Of a DNA stretch of 64,000 nt, positions 37,788-45,931 are shown piece after piece. Position 1 is the first letter of the stretch. Every line of letters starts with the position of its first letter. Both the position numbers and the translations under genes were made by a program. The notes under the pieces were generated by a model. The model saw nothing but the letters and a program-made list of their open reading frames with translations. It was not told the origin of the DNA and did no database searches. This stretch comes from a bacterium. GTDB taxonomy: Bacteria > SAR324 > NAC60-12. The stretch lies in NCBI GenBank assembly GCA_965209155.1, contig OZ242383.1, forward strand, positions 544,001 to 608,000, read 5' to 3'.

Positions 37788-37850
37788 CATTGTGTTGCGG
37801 GTGATGGCAGCATTGGGGGTCTGTGGAGTGCTAAGAGTTCTCATGATGCC

Positions 37851-37937
37851 TGAGAATGGCGGAAGGTATCAACGATTTTATGAAATCCAATTTCAAGAAT
37901 AACTACCGTCGCCATAAAACAACGTTTCCTGAGTTAA
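37851..37937 (+). repeat. Duplicate of the MsbA-like gene 3' tail and downstream sequence (16558-16644)
   Basis: ENGGRYQRFYEIQFQE* repeated. Confidence 0.9.
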
Positions 37938-38018
37938 TGTAGGATTCATCGGCCTCGGCGCCATAAAATCCGGGGACAGTTACGAAAATAAATCACGAAA
38001 ACCAGACCCGATATTAGC

Positions 38019-38191
38019 AGGGATCGGAATCTTTCTCTTGGAGGAGAGCACGCAGCCGTTCGACTTCCGCAAGCGCTTTTTCTTTTTCTTCTCTTGCCAA
38101 GGCATTTTCTTTCAGTTTTCGCTCTTTTTCTTTTTGCTGACGCTCTTGTTGGAAGCATTTCAGGAGAAAGGTTTTGGTAGAGAGGATCCTC
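38019..38191 (-). pseudogene. 3' fragment of a third Uma2 copy
   Basis: Matches 16669-16876 with indels in the heptad-repeat tail. Confidence 0.85.
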
Positions 38192-38409
38192 AATTAATCT
38201 TTAATTTGATGCGCTGGGCGCGCCTTATACAGACTCCCCCTAGAAATTTGAAACAGGAATATCTTCCCTTGCATTTAATCAGAAACTTCGATATGGTTGG
38301 CATTAAATCAGTTGATTTTGGCAAGAATCCGATTATGCGTTAACTAAATACAGTGATTCAGAAAAAAGTATCCAAATTGTCATTCTACTATGAAATCATA
38401 TGTCAAGAT

Positions 38410-38630
38410 AGTTATGAAAAAAATTCTAACCAGTCTACTATTCGTGGTCCCAAAGGCCGACAAGTTACTTTTTCGAAGTCATTTTCATGAAAGGAGTTGG
38501 CATACTGAGCGACGATGATCGGAGTCAACAAGAATGACACCGCCATACTCCAGGAACTTCGATAATGAGGTGTTGAACTTTTTCAAATTTCTTGGTTGTT
38601 GCTTTCTAGTAGATGAATCTCAAGGCTCTG
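38410..38630 (-). ncRNA. Candidate bridge/seek RNA of the IS1111-type element
   Basis: Two stem-closed loops containing matches to both target flanks (38531-38539, 38505-38509) and both element ends (38463-38469, 38435-38441); transcript ends unknown. Confidence 0.7.
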
Positions 38631-38637
38631 TTTTTGT

Positions 38638-39702
38638 TTAAACCACTTGGAGCACAGGAGGTTGATAAGGTGTTTGATCGAGGATTAACCTCCTAGCCAA
38701 AATCACCAGTTTACGAGCGATGGCCACAATGGCCCGTTTGCCTCCGATGCGGCAAGCCAAGCGTTGATATTTGGTTTTAAAATAAGGATCTTTACGCACC
38801 AGAGTCCAAGCCGCTTCCACCAACATTCCACGCAGATCGGCTTTGCCGGAACGAGTAATATGGCCCATGCGAATCTGATCAGAACTGGAAAACTGAGAAG
38901 GGGTTAAGCCCACATAAGCGGCGATTTGATCACTTTGAGCAAAACGCGTGAGATCTTCCAATTCTAATAAAAAGGTCATCGCTGTGAGCAAACCCACTCC
39001 GGGGATGGATCTTAAAAACTGAACGTTGAGTTGGTGTTGAGGGCTCTTGGCCAGTTGTCGAATGGCTTGAGTCAGACGAAGAATTTGCTCTTGGAGAAAA
39101 TGGAATTCTTCCAGAAGCATTTGCATACTCAAACCAAAGCGAGAGTCGCTTTGAGCCAAGTTTGTTAATTCCAATAAAAAACTTTGAGTCCAAGAACCTT
39201 GGTCGCTGGAGAGCTTTTGTCCATGAAAACTTAACTCGGCTTTGATGCGATTTTGAACACGAACTCGATTGCCCATGAGTTGACGACGATGGCGAATGAG
39301 TTTGCGTTGCTGCAAATTAGCTTCACTCGGAACATAAACACTTTTGAGCAAATCTCTGGAAAGATAAAAGGCTAATTTCTTGCTGTCTTTGCGATCGGTT
39401 TTTACTCGATTACCTGACTCTTGAGGAATCAAACTGGGAGGGGTGACCAAACAATCCACCCCCCAATGGCTCAGATGACGAGAGAGCCAGTAGCCACAAT
39501 AACCGGCTTCATAGACCACTTTCATCTCCAATGATTTGAAAGGATTCAAAAGTTTTTTTAAGGCCGACCAACTCGCTGGAATGGATTGACTGCTCAACTC
39601 GCAATCAAAGCTCCGAATGGTGACATGAAAGGTTTTTTTATGCACGTCGATTCCTATATAAATGGTTTGGCCTAATAATGATTCAATGTTAATCTTTTTC
39701 AT
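38638..39702 (-). CDS. IS110-family recombinase/transposase
   Basis: IGIDVHK, VYEAG, KTDRKDS (DEDD); SIPGVG; GLTPSQFSS; G.ITRSG. Confidence 0.95.
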   Translation of the reverse strand: MKKINIESLLGQTIYIGIDVHKKTFHVTIRSFDCELSSQSIPASWSALKKLLNPFKSLEMKVVYEAGYCGYWLSRHLSHWGVDCLVTPPSLIPQESGNRVKTDRKDSKKLAFYLSRDLLKSVYVPSEANLQQRKLIRHRRQLMGNRVRVQNRIKAELSFHGQKLSSDQGSWTQSFLLELTNLAQSDSRFGLSMQMLLEEFHFLQEQILRLTQAIRQLAKSPQHQLNVQFLRSIPGVGLLTAMTFLLELEDLTRFAQSDQIAAYVGLTPSQFSSSDQIRMGHITRSGKADLRGMLVEAAWTLVRKDPYFKTKYQRLACRIGGKRAIVAIARKLVILARRLILDQTPYQPPVLQVV

Positions 39703-39953
39703 AGCAGTCTCCTAAAAGATGGTTGTTAGTTTTTGCTGAAACTATTTAATATCACAACCATCGGAGACTGTCTGATTTACATAGTAACTGAGGGGGACGC
39801 CTAGTCATGTAGGCGAAGAATCTCAATGATATCAAGGAGAACTTTCGTAAGGGGGCTGCCTAAGCCTCAGGATGACAAATCAAAAGTATTAATTTGATCA
39901 CTTTATTCTGATTAGCTGTCCTAAGTATTCACGATTATCTCAGAGGAGTCCCC

Positions 39954-42900
39954 ATGGAAATGCCATATACTCAGCAGACTTCCTTGGATCAGCATAGGAA
40001 ACGGTTTTTGACCGATGATCGCTGTCACCAGCATCTTTTTACGGTTCGCTGGCCCCAGGGGTTTGTCTGTCCCGCCTGCGGTCATCATGAGTATTACGAG
40101 GTATCGCTGCGCAAGCTGTTTCAATGCAAACAATGTCATTCCCAAACTTCTGCGACGGCGGGCACGATCATGCACCGGACCCGGACTCCGCTGCGTTATT
40201 GGTTTTGGGGGATTTATTATGTGGCGGCATGCAATGGCGAGACGACGGCTCAACAACTATCAGAAAAAATCGGATTGAATTACTATTCCGCCCGGAGAAT
40301 GCTGGGAAAAATCCATGAAATCGAAAAGGACCAGGGGTTCCTGGGGGATCTGCTGAAAAGCTTCAAAATGCCTGAACCGTCCAAGGAAGAACTCTCTATT
40401 GGACCGGGAATGGAAACGCAATCCAGGCCAATAAAAGGGCCGTATCCACTAAGAGAGCCAACGATTCCAGACAGAAAAAATCCGGAGATTCTGGGTTATT
40501 CGCTGGAGGAGGTCATTTTTGAAAGTGGACGGACCTGGTTCAGGCGCGGCAGGCGGCAAAGGGACGGGCTTTCGGTCCTGATCAAGGGACCAGCTTCCTC
40601 TGAGCAGAGTGCCCAGGAACTGGCGGAAATGCGGCACGAGCATGAGATCACTCAGGCTCTTAGGATCGATGGGGTTCTCAGGGCAGAGGAACTGGTGCAT
40701 TGTGAGAACGGATGGGCGTTGATCCTGGAAAACACCGATTCGCTCCCTTTAAGAAAGCTGATGGATGCCGCCCGGCTCGACCTGCTGGACTCGCTGAAGA
40801 TAGCAGTTTCACTGATCGATATTCTGAAAGAAGTGCACCAGCAGGGCATCCTGCATAAAATGATCAACCCGTTCAATATTTTTGTCGATCCGGCATCGGG
40901 GACGGTCAAACTGAGCGGCTTCGGCCTGGCCACCCGGTTGCCTGAGAAAAATTTGACGACGTTGAGTCCTCAGCTGACCGGGGAAACCCTGCCCTATATC
41001 TCCCCCGAGCAGACCGGCCGGATGAACCGGCCCCTCGATTATCGCAGTGATTTTTATTCCCTGGGCGTCACCCTCTATGAGCTTTTCAGCGGAAGAGTGC
41101 CTTTCCACTCCCGGGAGGCCATGGAAATCATCCACGCTCACATTGCCCGGCAGCCCCTGTCCCCTGACGAGATTGAACCGCAAGTACCCAGAGTCCTTTC
41201 TAATATGGTGATGAAACTGCTGGCCAAGCGTGCCGAGGCGCGCTACCAGAGTCACTCGGGTCTGGCATCCGATCTCCTGGCATGTGTGGATCAGCTCGAA
41301 AACCAGGGGAGCCTGTCCGACTTTCCTCTGGGCCGCCATGATATGCCTGAAGAACTGCAGATCGCCCCGGGCTTTATGGCCGGGAGGATGAAATCACCGC
41401 CCTGGAGGCTGCCCTGGAACGAGTCAGCCAGGGAGCGACCGAGATGGTGCTGGTCTCGGGAAGCGCCGGTGTCGGTAAAACCGCCCTGGTCGGTGAAATT
41501 CACCGGTCCATTGCCCAAAAAAACGGCTTTTTCATCTCCGGCAAGTTTGACCAGCTCCGGCACAATATCCCCTACAGCGCCCTGATCCAGGCGCTGCGGG
41601 GACTCATCCGGGAGATGTCGGTTGCAAACAAACCCGGAATGGAGCGTTGGAAAAACAGGATACGGGCTGCCCTGGAACCCAACGGACAACTGGTGACCCG
41701 GGTGATCCCGGAACTGGAACAGATGATCGGCCCGCAACCCCCGCTGTCGGAAATGGGAGCGCTGGAGGCCCGGAACCGTTTCACTGCCGTTTTACTGGAG
41801 TTCATCGACCTTTTCTGTGAAAAGACCCATCCCCTGGTTATTTTTCTGGACGACCTGCAGTGGGTGGACGCCGATACCCTCAAGCTGGTGGAACGGATCG
41901 CTCAGGATCCGGAGAGGAAACCTCTGCTTTTCCTGGGGGCCTATCGCGACAACGAGGTGGAGGTCGATCATCGGCTGATGATCAGTTGTGAGGTGATCAA
42001 AAAAACAGGTCAGCCTGTGCAAACAATCCCCTTAAAGCCCCTCAACCCGGATGACATCTCACAACTGCTCGTCCATACCTGCCACTGCCGTCCTGAGGAT
42101 GCCAAACCGCTGGCCGAGGTTCTGGTGCGCAAAACCGGCGGCAATCCCTTCTTTGTGAGCCAGTTCTTGAACGTACTCTCCGAAAAGGAGCTGATCGGTT
42201 ACTCCCCCGAGGAAAAACGATGGACCTGGGATCTGGCTGCCATCGAATTCCTGGCGGTGACCGAAAATGTGGTGGATTTGCTGGTTGACCGGCTCCATCG
42301 ATTTTCCTCTGAAACCAGGAAACTCTTAAGCCTGGCGGCCTGCATCGGCAATACCTTTGACCTGGAATCGTTGGAACTGATCAGCGGAGCCGGAGGCAGA
42401 GAGATCGATGAGAACCTGTTGCCGGCCCTTGAAAATGGGTTGATTCTCGGTTTTTCCCAAGCCCCGCAGCTGGATAATCCTCTGGACGGAGCGAGCGCGG
42501 AGAGCGGCAGCTACAAATTCCTGCATGACCGGGTGCAGCAGGCTGCCTATGCCCTCATTGCCCAAAAGGAGAAACAGACGGTCCATCTTCAAATCGGTCA
42601 GACCCTGCTCAAGCAATACGCTCCAGAGAAAGGTGTAGATCTGCTTTTTGACATCGTCCACCATCTCAACCTGGCCCGGAGGGTGAAGGATAAATGGAAA
42701 GAACGATTGCATCTGGCAGAACTCAACTTGAAAGCTGGTCGTCAGGCCAGAGCGGCTTCGGCTTTTGAACAGGCTCTGGAATACTTTACCCTGGGCCTGG
42801 ATCTCTTAGGAGCCGCCGCCTGGAAACGGCATTACCCCCTGGCCTTATCCCTGCATGAAGCCGCCACGGAGATGTCATCGCTCTGCGGCCGCTTCGAGTT

Positions 42901-45900
42901 GATGGAGGAGCTGGCGGGTGCTGTAAAAGACAACGCCCGAGAAGACCCGGACCTGGCCAATGTTTATCGATGCCGGATCCAGGCGTACACAACCCGAGGT
43001 GAATTAAAAAAGGCACAGGAAACGGGCGCGGAGATTCTGGAGAAATTGGGGTATCAACTGAGCCGTCTGTCTCTCGACCAGTGGCAGCAGACCCTCGTTC
43101 AAATCAAACCCAGCCTGGCCGGTAAAAGCGTCGCAGACGTGATGCGCTTTGAGCCGCTCACCCAAACGGATGCCGAGGTCCTTGTCCCTATCCTGTATGA
43201 ACTCCATTTACCATATGACCAGGCTGGGGCTACTTTGGATGACGGTCTTTGGCAACCCATCGCTGCCAAACGCATCTCTTTGCTGCTGAATCATTTTCAT
43301 CCGCAATATTCACCCGAATTCTATATTCACCTTGGATATATATATTGCGGGTTTGTGCAGGATTTTGAATTTGGTTATGAACTCGGTCGTCTGAGCATAC
43401 AGATCATGGAAGCGCTTGATCTGAAGGAAATAAACTGTAGAGTTTCCGGGGGTTTCAATGGTGGGATCCGGTTCTATGGGGAGCCGCTATCGGCGTCATT
43501 GGATCCCTTGCTGGAAACTCATAAGATGGGAATCGAAACGGGAGATTTCGTCAATGCCGGTATTAGCGCTGTCGCAAGGTGTCGAATAGCGTTTATGTGC
43601 GGGAAAGAGCTGAATTGGCTGAAAGGGGAATTGTCGACGTTGAAGCTTGCTCTCAAGAAGATTGATTATATTCTCGGGTCTCCCCAAGTCGAAATGCTGA
43701 TGAAGGCGGTCATGATTCTAATGGATGAACCTTCGAGCCTGTCGAACGGCATCATGGATCAATACGACAGGGTGACAAGTACGGAGTACTCATATTATGA
43801 ACATTGCAGTTTTAATTACCAGAAGCTGGTACTGCAAACCCTGTTCGAAGAATACGAAGCAGCCCGTGAGACGGTTTTTGAAATGATCAACCTGATGAAA
43901 ACCTACAAGGATTCCCTTGTTGATCCCCTGGCCAACTGCTACCTGTCTTTCGCTCTCCTGGCGGTTTGCAACCAGGGGAGCGAGGGGGAAAAGGAGGAAA
44001 TCCTCACCCAGGTTGATGACAATCAGGAGACGTTGGAGAAACTGGCGCGCTGCGCACCGCCCAATTATTTGCATAAATACCACCTGGTGGAAGCCGAGCG
44101 GATGAGGGTTTTGGAGGGTCAAAGCGACGCGATCCTGTCCCATTATGACCAGGCCATCGCTTTGGCCAGAGAGAGTGAATTTATCCACGAGGAAGCCCTG
44201 GCCAATGAACTGGCAGCCAGGTACTTGCTCAACCAGGGGCAGAACGACGCCGCCGGCTCTTACCTGCGCTCAGCAATGGAAAAATACGAAACCTGGGGGG
44301 CAAAACGGAAGGTCGCGCACCTAAAGTCTCGATATCCCGGGCTGATTGCCGATGATCGTGCTGAAGCGGCGTCTCCTTCGGCCAACCTGGATCTGGGGAC
44401 GATGCTCAAAGCCTCGGAGGCCATCTCCAGTACCCTCGAGTTGGAACCGCTGCTGGAGATTCTGCTCCGCATTCTCATGGAAAATGCCGGGGCCCAGACA
44501 GCAACCCTGATTCTGGAAACCGAAGGTCAGTCTCTTATCGCTGCCCGTGGGAGTGCCGAGCAGGTCGAATATTTCCTGCCGCTTTCCCTGCCTGTGGAAA
44601 AGGCCCAATCCCTCTCCCTGTCGGTCATCTCCTGGGTAAAACAAACCCGGGAACACCTGGTTTTGGACAATGCCGCCCGCGAGGAACGGTTTGCCGAGGA
44701 TGATCATATCCAGAGGGAGCGCCCCAAATCCATCCTGTGCGCGCCGATCACTCATCAGTCCGCCTTGAGCGGAATCATTTACCTGGAAAATAACCTGGTT
44801 GAGGGAGCCTTCACCTCCCGGCGATTCGAGGTGATCAAGCACCTTAGCTCCCAGATCGCCATTTCCCTGGAAAATGCCAGGCTTCACGAAAACCTCAAAA
44901 AGGCGCTGGACGAGTCGAAAGCGAGCGAAACCTCCCTGCATGAAGAAAATATCCGTCTGAAGGCCAACATCAAGGAGCGTTATCGGTTCGGAAAGATCAT
45001 CGGCAAAAGCCCCGTGATGCAGGAGATTTGTGAATTAATCTTAAAGGCGGCGGCTAGCGATGCGGGTGTCATTGTCTATGGTGAATCAGGGACCGGTAAA
45101 GAATTGGTGGCTGAAGCCATCCATAAGATGAGTGATAGAAAAGAAAAAGCCTTTGTTCCTGTCAACGCCGGCGGCGTTGCAGAAACCCTCTTGGAAAGTG
45201 AGTTTTTCGGCTACAAAAAAGGGGCCTTTACCGGAGCCAACGCGGATAAGCGCGGCCTGCTCCAATCGGCAGACAAAGGCACGCTTTTCCTGGATGAATT
45301 GGGTGAAATCGGCCCCAATCTGCAAGCCAAACTGCTGCGCGCTATTGAGGGTGGAGGGTTCACGCCAGTAGGCGGACTTGAAGCGGAAACCTCCGATTTT
45401 CGCGTCATTGCCGCCACCAATAAAGATTTAAAAGAACAGGTGAAAAAGGGATTGATGCGGGAGGATTTCCTCTACCGCATCCACATTATCCCTCTTCACT
45501 TGCCGCCTCTCCGGGAACGTAAAGAGGATATCCCCCTGTTGATCGAGCATTTTATGCAAAACTACCCCCCCTCAAAGAACCTGCCCACAATCACCGTCGC
45601 TGTCATGGAAGCTCTGACTTCCTATGATTGGCCGGGCAATGTGAGGGAACTCCAAAATACGTTGCACCGCTACGTTACCTTGAAGAGGCTGGATTTTCTG
45701 GGAGCCCCTTTAAGTGCGCCGGCCCCTTCGCCGGAGATGAAATTTGAACCGATCCGGCCAAATGAAGAGTTGCTCCGAGATGTGGTGGCGCATTTCGAAA
45801 GGGAATATATCCTGAAGCAATTGGAAAGGTACCATTGGAACCGCTCCAAAGTTGCTTCTAAGCTTGGCATTGACCGAAGGACACTTTTTAAAAAGATGAG

Positions 45901-45931
45901 GAGTTATGGGGTGTTTAAGCCCCAAAATTAG
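39954..45931 (+). pseudogene. Second giant sigma54 activator: IS1595 Zn-ribbon/HTH, pseudokinase, STAND ATPase, GAF, sigma54 AAA+, HTH; split by a 1-bp deletion near 41370
   Basis: Colinear paralog of 17855-24004 without the PAS domain. CCCCGGG (41365-41371) versus CCCCGGGG (19095-19102); restoring one G gives a single 1992-aa frame. Confidence 0.85.

Follow-up and report, generated by a model that had tools for sequence, protein, structure and literature searches.

An IS1111-type insertion sequence of a SAR324 bacterium with a putative guide RNA matching its insertion sites

RNA-guided recombinases of the IS110/IS1111 family are under development as programmable DNA-insertion tools. Our comparison with published IS1111 structures is based on the text of two 2024 papers, which define the IS1111 group by a long non-coding region downstream of the transposase gene with the RNA in the right end, and in which the match to the top strand of the target lies 5' of the match to the bottom strand (PMC11187229; PMC11208160). 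Here we describe an IS110-family insertion sequence with this layout on the minus strand of a 64,000-nt stretch of a SAR324 genome (contig OZ242383.1, positions 544,001 to 608,000; "the window" in the following, in whose numbering all positions are given unless marked as genome positions, with junctions in transposase orientation). Very probably it is an intact and recently active element whose 3' RNA, as an original prediction for this locus had proposed, would guide target choice and act on its own ends.

As far as their published text describes them, the seekRNA elements ISEc11, ISPa11, ISKpn4 and ISPst6 (Siddiquee et al. 2024, PMC11187229) resemble the element in the window in the DEDD transposase, the long 3' non-coding region, the subterminal inverted repeats, a top-strand match followed by a bottom-strand match overlapping at the insertion point, and a proposed junction promoter driving the transposase gene together with the RNA. 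The RNA sizes expected here are also comparable to their short (70–100 nt) and long (145–170 nt) forms in the same text, whereas the RNA region in the window has no detectable sequence similarity to theirs, the target is a different one, the C-terminal motif reads GL-P----SS and not S(t)G, and our element is known from sequence alone. The bridge RNA of IS621, as presented in the text of its descriptions (Durrant et al. 2024, PMC11208160; Hiraizumi et al. 2024, PMC11208158), likewise has two loops with two guides each, directed to opposite strands beside a 2-nt core, and belongs to a recombinase of the same family with a junction promoter formed on circularisation. In contrast to IS621, the RNA in the window lies in the right and not in the left end, the order of top- and bottom-strand guides is reversed, and the long guide (9 nt) addresses the right and the short one (5–6 nt) the left side of the target. 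The core of IS621 is CT, whereas the core of the element described here is AG.

The element measures 1403 bp with one AG counted and occupies positions 38385–39787 plus the second AG at 39789–39788. This AG is the 2-nt core and is present at both junctions, the left one reading CCCTC-AG-TTACT (core 39789–39788) and the right one ATAGT-AG-AATGACA (core 38386–38385). The left end comprises 85 nt and the 3' non-coding region 253 nt, so that the longer non-coding part lies downstream of the transposase gene as in the IS1111 group. The subterminal inverted repeats of 12/13 nt, ACTATGTAAATCA and TGATTTCATAGT, match at 12 of 12 positions with one extra T after ACTATG in the left copy, which is set 2 nt back from the core; their length falls within the 7–17 bp of IS1111-group repeats. 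The DEDD transposase, the layout of the two ends, the subterminal repeats and the AG core agree with the IS1111-type assignment made in the original prediction, and its coordinates for the four guide segments, both stems and the TTGACA were every one recovered in the sequence. Its upper bound of 39877 had to be given up, as this position lies outside the element and belongs to the far arm of the palindrome that bears the target (Table 1).

Table 1. Features of the element, junctions of its four genomic copies (slashes mark the element boundaries) and decayed sister pieces.
Feature	Position	Strand	Basis
Far arm TGTCATCCTGAGG of the ~105-bp palindromic repeat containing the target	39865..39877	-	sequence; hairpin fold of the reconstructed empty site
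Left target flank CTC and AG core copy	39788..39792	-	CTCAG identical at 4 genomic copies and one metagenome left junction
Left end, 85 nt: inverted repeat ACTATGTAAATCA 39785-39773, candidate -10 TACTAT 39786-39781, ribosome-binding site	39703..39787	-	homology among copies begins here
Transposase gene, 354 aa, IS110-family DEDD recombinase	38638..39702	-	PF01548, PF02371, NF033542, motifs
Target-binding loop: outer stem 38551-38542/38501-38493, right-target guide UGUCAUUCU 38539-38531, inner hairpin ~38530-38513	38493..38551	-	folds, family model
Target-binding loop, 3' part: left-target guide (G)CUCAG 38510-38505, then UAU	38493..38551	-	guide extents equal conserved flank extents
Putative donor-binding loop: closing stem AUGAAAA 38488-38482/UUUUCAU 38420-38414, hairpin ~38462-38443	38414..38488	-	layout as in relatives; family-model stem register
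Putative donor-loop guides: left-donor AGUAACU 38469-38463, right-donor AUAGUAG 38441-38435	38414..38488	-	shuffle statistics
Right end: -35-like TTGACA 38406-38401, inverted repeat TGATTTCATAGT 38398-38387, AG core copy 38386-38385	38385..38413	-	sequence
Right target flank AATGACA	38378..38384	-	identical at 4 genomic copies and 2 further metagenome junctions
Copy c1 (window): ..ccccCTCAG / TTACT...ATAGTAG / AATGACAatt			
Copy c2: ..ccctCTCAG / ... / AATGACAatt			
Copy c3: ..gctcCTCAG / ... / AATGACAgtg			
Copy c4: ..atatCTCAG / ... / AATGACAggt			
Sister pieces, own genome (G000:C1)	genome 2304510-2305541, 3416494-3416602, 3460367-3460413, 3456043-3458382		
Further sister pieces, own genome	genome 1772483-1772745, 3668103-3668362, 303764-303920, 873396-873527		

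The transposase matches PF01548 (DEDD_Tnp_IS110) with 63.7 bits (cutoff 29), PF02371 (Transposase_20) with 85.3 bits (cutoff 21.3) and NCBIfam NF033542 'IS110 family RNA-guided transposase' with 240.5 bits (cutoff 140). A pattern search located the motifs IGID19V, YE65AG, KTD103RKD106 and GLTPSQFS273S, and from work on IS621 and Piv we take IGIDV, YEAG, KTDRKD and GLTPSQFSSS to hold the catalytic residues. The serine motif aligns with ESG of ISCro4, and the nearest solved structures, the transposases of ISCro4 and IS621, are both distant (8wt6 from IS621 matched at E = 4.3e-11). The text of PMC11187229 gives IS1111 transposases as 330–350 aa long with the C-terminal motif GL-P----S(t)G, compared with 354 aa here and a GLTPSQFSSS that keeps the serine and replaces the G by S. 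Among the 42 relatives' loci described below the last two residues of this motif are SG in 27, SS in 4 and other pairs in 6, with 5 having no motif. The best plasmid-borne matches are about 30–35% identical and annotated just as 'IS110 family transposase'.

A DNA search of the element's own genome (4.26 Mb) yielded four full, near-identical copies differing by 1 base in 1403, all with intact reading frame and intact ends. Each is flanked by CTCAG on the left and AATGACA on the right, and the sequences diverge further out. With a single base differing in 1403 between c1 and c2, and with surrounding paralogous flanks that are only 93–94% identical, the element is much younger than the paralogous loci it occupies. 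Further junctions came from contigs of four public metagenome runs that were aligned to the element region. In run X13 a 264-nt contig joins 38384 to 39788, with exactly 1403 bp absent and a 2-nt ambiguity, and since it carries the base differences of the c2 paralog it represents an unoccupied version of the c2 site; occupied and empty versions of one locus thus coexist in public data. Three new junctions, namely the right flanks AATGACAA followed by ATCTGC (run X5) and AATGACA followed by TGTTAA (run X13) and a left flank ..TTCGCAAG followed by CTCAG (run X13), agree with the four genomic copies, and therefore all observed insertions share CTC-AG-AATGACA. Comparing the flanks of other copies with the predicted target had been suggested in the original prediction and came out in its favour for CTC-AG-AATGACA.

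The genome holds six CTCAGAATGACA sites in all, of which four are occupied and two are empty, and the best-matching empty site, GCTCAGAATGACA at genome position 3848468, is unoccupied. At the window copy the target sits in one arm of an intergenic palindrome of ~105 bp with about four copies in the genome, and the reconstructed empty site folds as a long hairpin in which the far arm TGTCATCCTGAGG pairs with CCTCAG/AATGACA. Copy c3 is located inside a half-repeat of this palindrome and c4 inside no such repeat. Two unoccupied similar palindromes (genome 1261426–1261501 and 1428513–1428588) read GTCAGAATGACA, with GTC-AG in place of CTC-AG; the deviation from the target affects the third base to the left of the core. 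The target had been called REP-like (repetitive extragenic palindromic), and it is indeed palindromic, but with about four copies it lacks the many copies of a REP. Likewise, a preferred 16-bp target GTCGCTCAGAATGACA finds no support, because the five distinct left flanks have only CTC+AG in common and show little match to the guide beyond CTC (agreement of 1/5, 2/5 and 1/5 at these positions); the 16-mer has 0 copies in the genome. The predicted programmed site is (G)CTC-AG-AATGACA. Insertion into palindromic extragenic repeats is also described in the text on the IS110-family elements ISPpu9 and ISPpu10 of Pseudomonas putida (Pares-Guillen et al. 2025, PMC12288879), whose targets are true high-copy REPs in contrast to the palindrome with about four copies here.

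Judged from these copies and junctions, the element is intact and recently active. If instead the guides were real and the element now immobile in this genome, this would fit with the missing circle junction, as no back-joined contig was present among the contigs of the four public runs, which drop rare forms, with the missing promoter-like site upstream of the integrated gene, and with the unoccupied best-matching site. However, contigs are unable to show rare circles, the four copies have hardly diverged with reading frame and ends intact, occupied and empty versions of one locus coexist and other flanks are found in other samples, which makes a loss of mobility highly improbable.

Within the 3' region, the 9-nt right-target guide UGUCAUUCU is the complement of AGAATGACA, and of GUCGCUCAG (38513–38505) only the CUCAG matches the flanks; the family plan derived below puts the GUCG of GUCGCUCAG at or in the base of the inner hairpin. 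As in seekRNAs, these two segments address opposite target strands, overlap at the AG core and have the top-strand match first, and the extents of both coincide exactly with the flank conservation among the four copies. Chance was assessed with 20000 dinucleotide shuffles of a 223-nt non-coding region (last 30 nt excluded) and matches anchored on the core. The 9-nt right-target match was attained in 37 of the 20000 shuffles, the 7-nt left-donor match (AGUAACU) in 273 and the 7-nt right-donor match (AUAGUAG) in 57, and the summed match length of 28 compares with a shuffle maximum of 25 (n=20000). Three of the four originally predicted guide segments are therefore individually rarer than chance and their sum exceeds every shuffle, but the left-target guide shrinks to (G)CUC+AG.

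In folding the two loops behave differently. The outer stem of the target loop, formed by GGAGUAUGGC and GCCAACUCC, appears as GGAGU-A-UGGC/GCCA-ACUCC around the first guide pair in every fold, and the isolated 59-nt target-loop domain has a folding z of -1.74. Its guides are accordingly found in a closed internal loop in all folds and in the family-model alignment, and we regard the target loop as well supported. The stem of the donor loop is weakly supported, as AUGAAAA/UUUUCAU was seen only in the 75-nt domain folded alone, with rival pairings in longer contexts. Both stems of the original prediction are thus located where it had placed them, with the first one in every fold, but the second one is weak thermodynamically, and in these models thermodynamics alone leaves the donor loop unsettled.

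Protein-seeded scans of genome and metagenome collections gave full-length relatives of just 31–41% identity and a few short fragments of 43–48%, and 64 genomes of the same order yielded a pseudogene pair of 72% identity and a single genome whose matches were at 38–39%. A BLAST search of the non-coding region against 88 loci from other genomes and metagenomes (L034–L121) gave nothing, and no close relative with an intact RNA region was present in the collections searched. The distant relatives (31–41% protein identity) fall into clusters with alignable 3' regions, and in one cluster of ~1453-bp elements the loop segments visibly change with the flanks of each element. A covariance model built from 11 elements of this cluster (R1) gave 39 matches (E <= 0.003) spread over 38 of 57 loci, each of them downstream of the transposase gene and on its strand and none in the window. 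In the resulting alignment of 42 sequences 93.7% of the cells are paired, compared with 35–47% when the partners are slid, and changes on both sides occur in 37 of 39 pairs, values attained in 0 of 500 shuffles, with the caveat for these covariation figures that the alignment was fitted to the covariance model. In a MAFFT alignment of the target loop only, made with 33 of the 42 sequences, the outer stem was not preserved.

The plan of the relatives' RNA comprises a first domain with outer stem, 5' strand, inner hairpin, a 3' strand ending in AG plus 3 nt and the outer stem again, followed after a short linker by a second domain with closing stem, 5' strand, hairpin, 1–2 nt and a 7–8-nt segment ending in AG. 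For the target guides 26 of the 42 loci were usable (7 dropped because of unclear ends and 9 with no right end found). The 5' loop strand shares a mean longest common string of 7.69 with the element's own right flank compared with 3.36 for flanks of other elements, and the 3' loop strand one of 5.27 compared with 2.97 for the left flank, values attained in 0 of 10000 permutations for either strand. The left guide of these relatives typically comprises 4 nt and the AG. For the right-donor test right ends were called only from the target-guide match, and the guide was identical to the element's terminal 7 nt at 33 of the 34 loci with such independently called ends, in four variants (ATAAAAG 24, ATAGAAG 6, ATAACAG 2, ATGACAG 1). 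The left-donor guide changes together with the left end of the element (seen in L047, L101 and L095); ACTTCT, for example, accompanies AGAAGT in L101, and in L047 ATATCT accompanies AGATAT. Guides thus covary with targets and ends in the distant relatives.

A broader model (R2) aligns positions 38410–38554 of the window full length and places the outer stem, UGUCAUUCU, the inner hairpin, CUCAG+UAU and the register of the donor stem on homologous columns, with 8.9 bits and E = 0.026 in the non-coding region alone at a rough calibration. We take this threading as consistent with the modelled RNA plan and not as proof of it. Of the covariance model and RNA folding that the original prediction had recommended, the former delivered a two-loop plan with covariation in 42 relatives, but the window itself scores weakly in it (E = 0.026 or 6.8, depending on the search space). 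The relatives, uncharacterised IS1111-like elements from metagenome-assembled genomes (MAGs) of Bacteroidota and Ignavibacteria and from metagenomes (L034–L115), are also alike in the AG core, the TATGT-based ends (AG-TTAC-TATGT-AAATCA here aligns with their AG-ACCT-TATGT-TAAGCA), the 1-nt inverted-repeat offset, the TTGAC near the right end and the two-loop RNA plan. They differ in their protein (31–41% identity) and in the GCAGCUC...GAUGUCUGC hairpins in place of the shorter unrelated hairpins here, and R2 scores the RNA of the window at only ~9 bits.

The matches in the window could also be mere relics, consisting of a captured palindrome piece and an internal duplicate of the ends, with the protein alone choosing the site; the palindrome arm TGTCATCCTGAGG does resemble UGUCAUUCU, and inverted repeats make end sequences recur inside an element. 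However, this similarity to the arm ends at the core, the segment occupies a loop column that covaries with the flanks in 26 relatives with unrelated targets, the guide extents equal those of the conserved flanks, and order, spacing and stems match an RNA supported by covariation. Moreover, RNA guidance has been shown experimentally in the IS110/IS1111 family, as stated in the text of PMC11187229 and PMC11208160, and we give the relic explanation hardly any credence.

Several observations weigh against a complete guide RNA with two working loops. The 5-nt CUCAG match of the left-target guide was attained in 4884 of the 20000 shuffles and alone is not significant. Free-energy folds of stretches of 138–256 nt do not outperform shuffles (z = -0.44 to -0.87), and the donor stem is not favoured in contexts of 138, 151 and 161 nt. 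In some of the folds part of AGUAACU pairs with GGUUA, and GUC with GAC; two substitutions seen in r3416 and r3460, both decayed relatives, fit this alternative helix. The E value of 0.026 for R2 holds only for a search limited to the non-coding region, in which the alignment skips the interior of the donor loop; when the entire window is searched with filters off, the model reaches 9.1 bits with E = 6.8 at rank 2 of 3, which is not significant. Rfam has no match at E <= 1 in 37800–40400 and none at E <= 0.1 in the loci of four relatives. Finally, there is no covariation within the element's own lineage, because the only closer relatives found, all in this genome, lack the target loop or have a decayed one.

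One could suppose a seekRNA for the target only, in which the first loop alone is functional, AGUAACU and AUAGUAG are unused, and the protein recognises the ends via the subterminal inverted repeats. According to the text of PMC11187229 an 82-nt target-only seekRNA of ISEc11 supported movement better than its 154-nt form, which counts against a need for the second loop, and its authors consider that end recognition may differ in IS1111; the unfavoured donor stem and the skipped loop interior point in the same direction. On the other hand, the two 7-nt donor matches are individually rare and directly flank a hairpin on its 5' and 3' sides, with the very placement seen in the relatives, where the 3' segment equals the right end in nearly all loci with four variants and the 5' segment changes along with the left end. 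As these segments track the element ends, their conservation in the relatives is hard to explain without a function. A target-only RNA is hence unlikely in our view, though it is the most serious of the competing explanations, and the donor loop is likely, with a role in reading the ends that would follow from its matches.

For the guide RNA with two loops, which we prefer, the following model can be proposed. The element would excise as a circle joined at the AG core, and the circle junction would create a sigma-70-type promoter (TTGACA, 17 nt, TACTAT) driving the transposase gene and the 253-nt region, from which a seek/bridge RNA of ~60 nt (target loop alone) to ~140 nt (both loops) would arise. 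In its target loop, the pairing partner of UGUCAUUCU would be AG+AATGACA on the top strand and that of (G)CUCAG would be CTC+AG on the bottom strand, and this would specify the 12-bp site CTC-AG-AATGACA and the orientation of the insertion. In the second loop AGUAACU and AUAGUAG would pair likewise with the halves of the circle junction ATAGT-AG-TTACT, and the DEDD/serine recombinase would exchange the strands at AG. We infer that the RNA is transcribed and processed, that it binds the transposase, that the junction promoter is active and that the donor loop is required for function.

The joined ends indeed would read TTGACA-N17-TACTAT, as the original prediction of a promoter formed by circularisation requires. 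A promoter and terminator scan of the integrated element found one weak internal promoter-like site, none comparable upstream of the gene, and no terminator. Junction promoters are described in the IS110/IS1111 family in the text of PMC11187229 and PMC12288879, and minicircles of ISPpu10 form a strong hybrid promoter according to the latter.

Outside the window the same genome contains decayed sister pieces with 76–88% DNA identity (Table 1). One sister has a full transposase gene with its 3' region replaced by ..CACATAGTAG and is without the RNA region; the other pieces are solitary right ends in which the sequence of the donor loop is retained, and derivatives of a left end plus internal fragment. 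Their flanks read ..CA(C/T)ATAG on the left and GAA(A/G)AT on the right, so that ends and core are as in the window element and the target is different. A target loop from the sister fragment r3416 was considered and rejected, as its possible remnant (ATTTATCC, CATTG) is unusable with the inner hairpin and the 5' half of the stem missing. It is conceivable, although we hold it as a tentative idea that is rather less probable than not, that the window element represents a compact (~138 nt) and distinct branch of IS1111 bridge RNAs with lineage-specific hairpins, missed by Rfam and by the model of the nearest relatives, and that the sister with ..CATAG and GAAAAT at its flanks was retargeted by a swap of the target loop alone. 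If both hold, the two elements together would offer a small test, set up by nature, of modular guide exchange.

Some observations were made beside this analysis. In one cluster of the relatives the 1–3 bases after the right-donor AG change with the start of the right flank (GC.. in contrast to CC..; L041 and L079 compared with L045, L059 and others, A2 columns ~247–249), which resembles a handshake-type contact; in the window the base after the right-donor guide (A, 38434) equals the first base of the right flank. The inner hairpins of target and donor loops of the relatives both carry GCAGCUC...GAUGUCUGC, as if the two loops might stem from an internal duplication, and the window element is without this motif in either loop. 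A related element is present twice in tandem in the metagenome-assembled locus L039, and both copies have an RNA of their own (1017–1177 and 2640–2800). Sequence near-identical to window positions 38300–39900 occurs in 20 public runs from 9 studies, several of them labelled sponge or marine metagenome, and because of these labels the element or its host seems to be widespread in such samples; RNA runs containing the element sequence were none among the runs listed. Next to the element, which lies upstream, an open reading frame (ORF) with Zn_ribbon_IS1595 and protein kinase matches (39954–41585, plus strand) starts 165 bp away and is overlapped in another frame by an AAA_16/TPR/GAF/sigma-54-activator ORF (41444–45931, plus strand). 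The ORFs in 39954–45931 might represent two genes or else a single, very large regulator that contains a frameshift, and a paralog of these kinase/sigma-54 regulator ORFs adjoins copy c2.

For its host genome the element is ordinary, and it is a new, ordinary and intact member of an already known class. Each naturally validated element is a data point on the minimum guide length and on loop construction, and here several insertion sites, an empty site that matches them and guides that can be read provide this validation. The element shows a 9-nt right guide with only a 3–4-nt left guide beside an AG core, on a scaffold that is missed by existing models. Furthermore, the covariance model of the 42 relatives could help to annotate such RNAs in genomes of Bacteroidota and Ignavibacteria.

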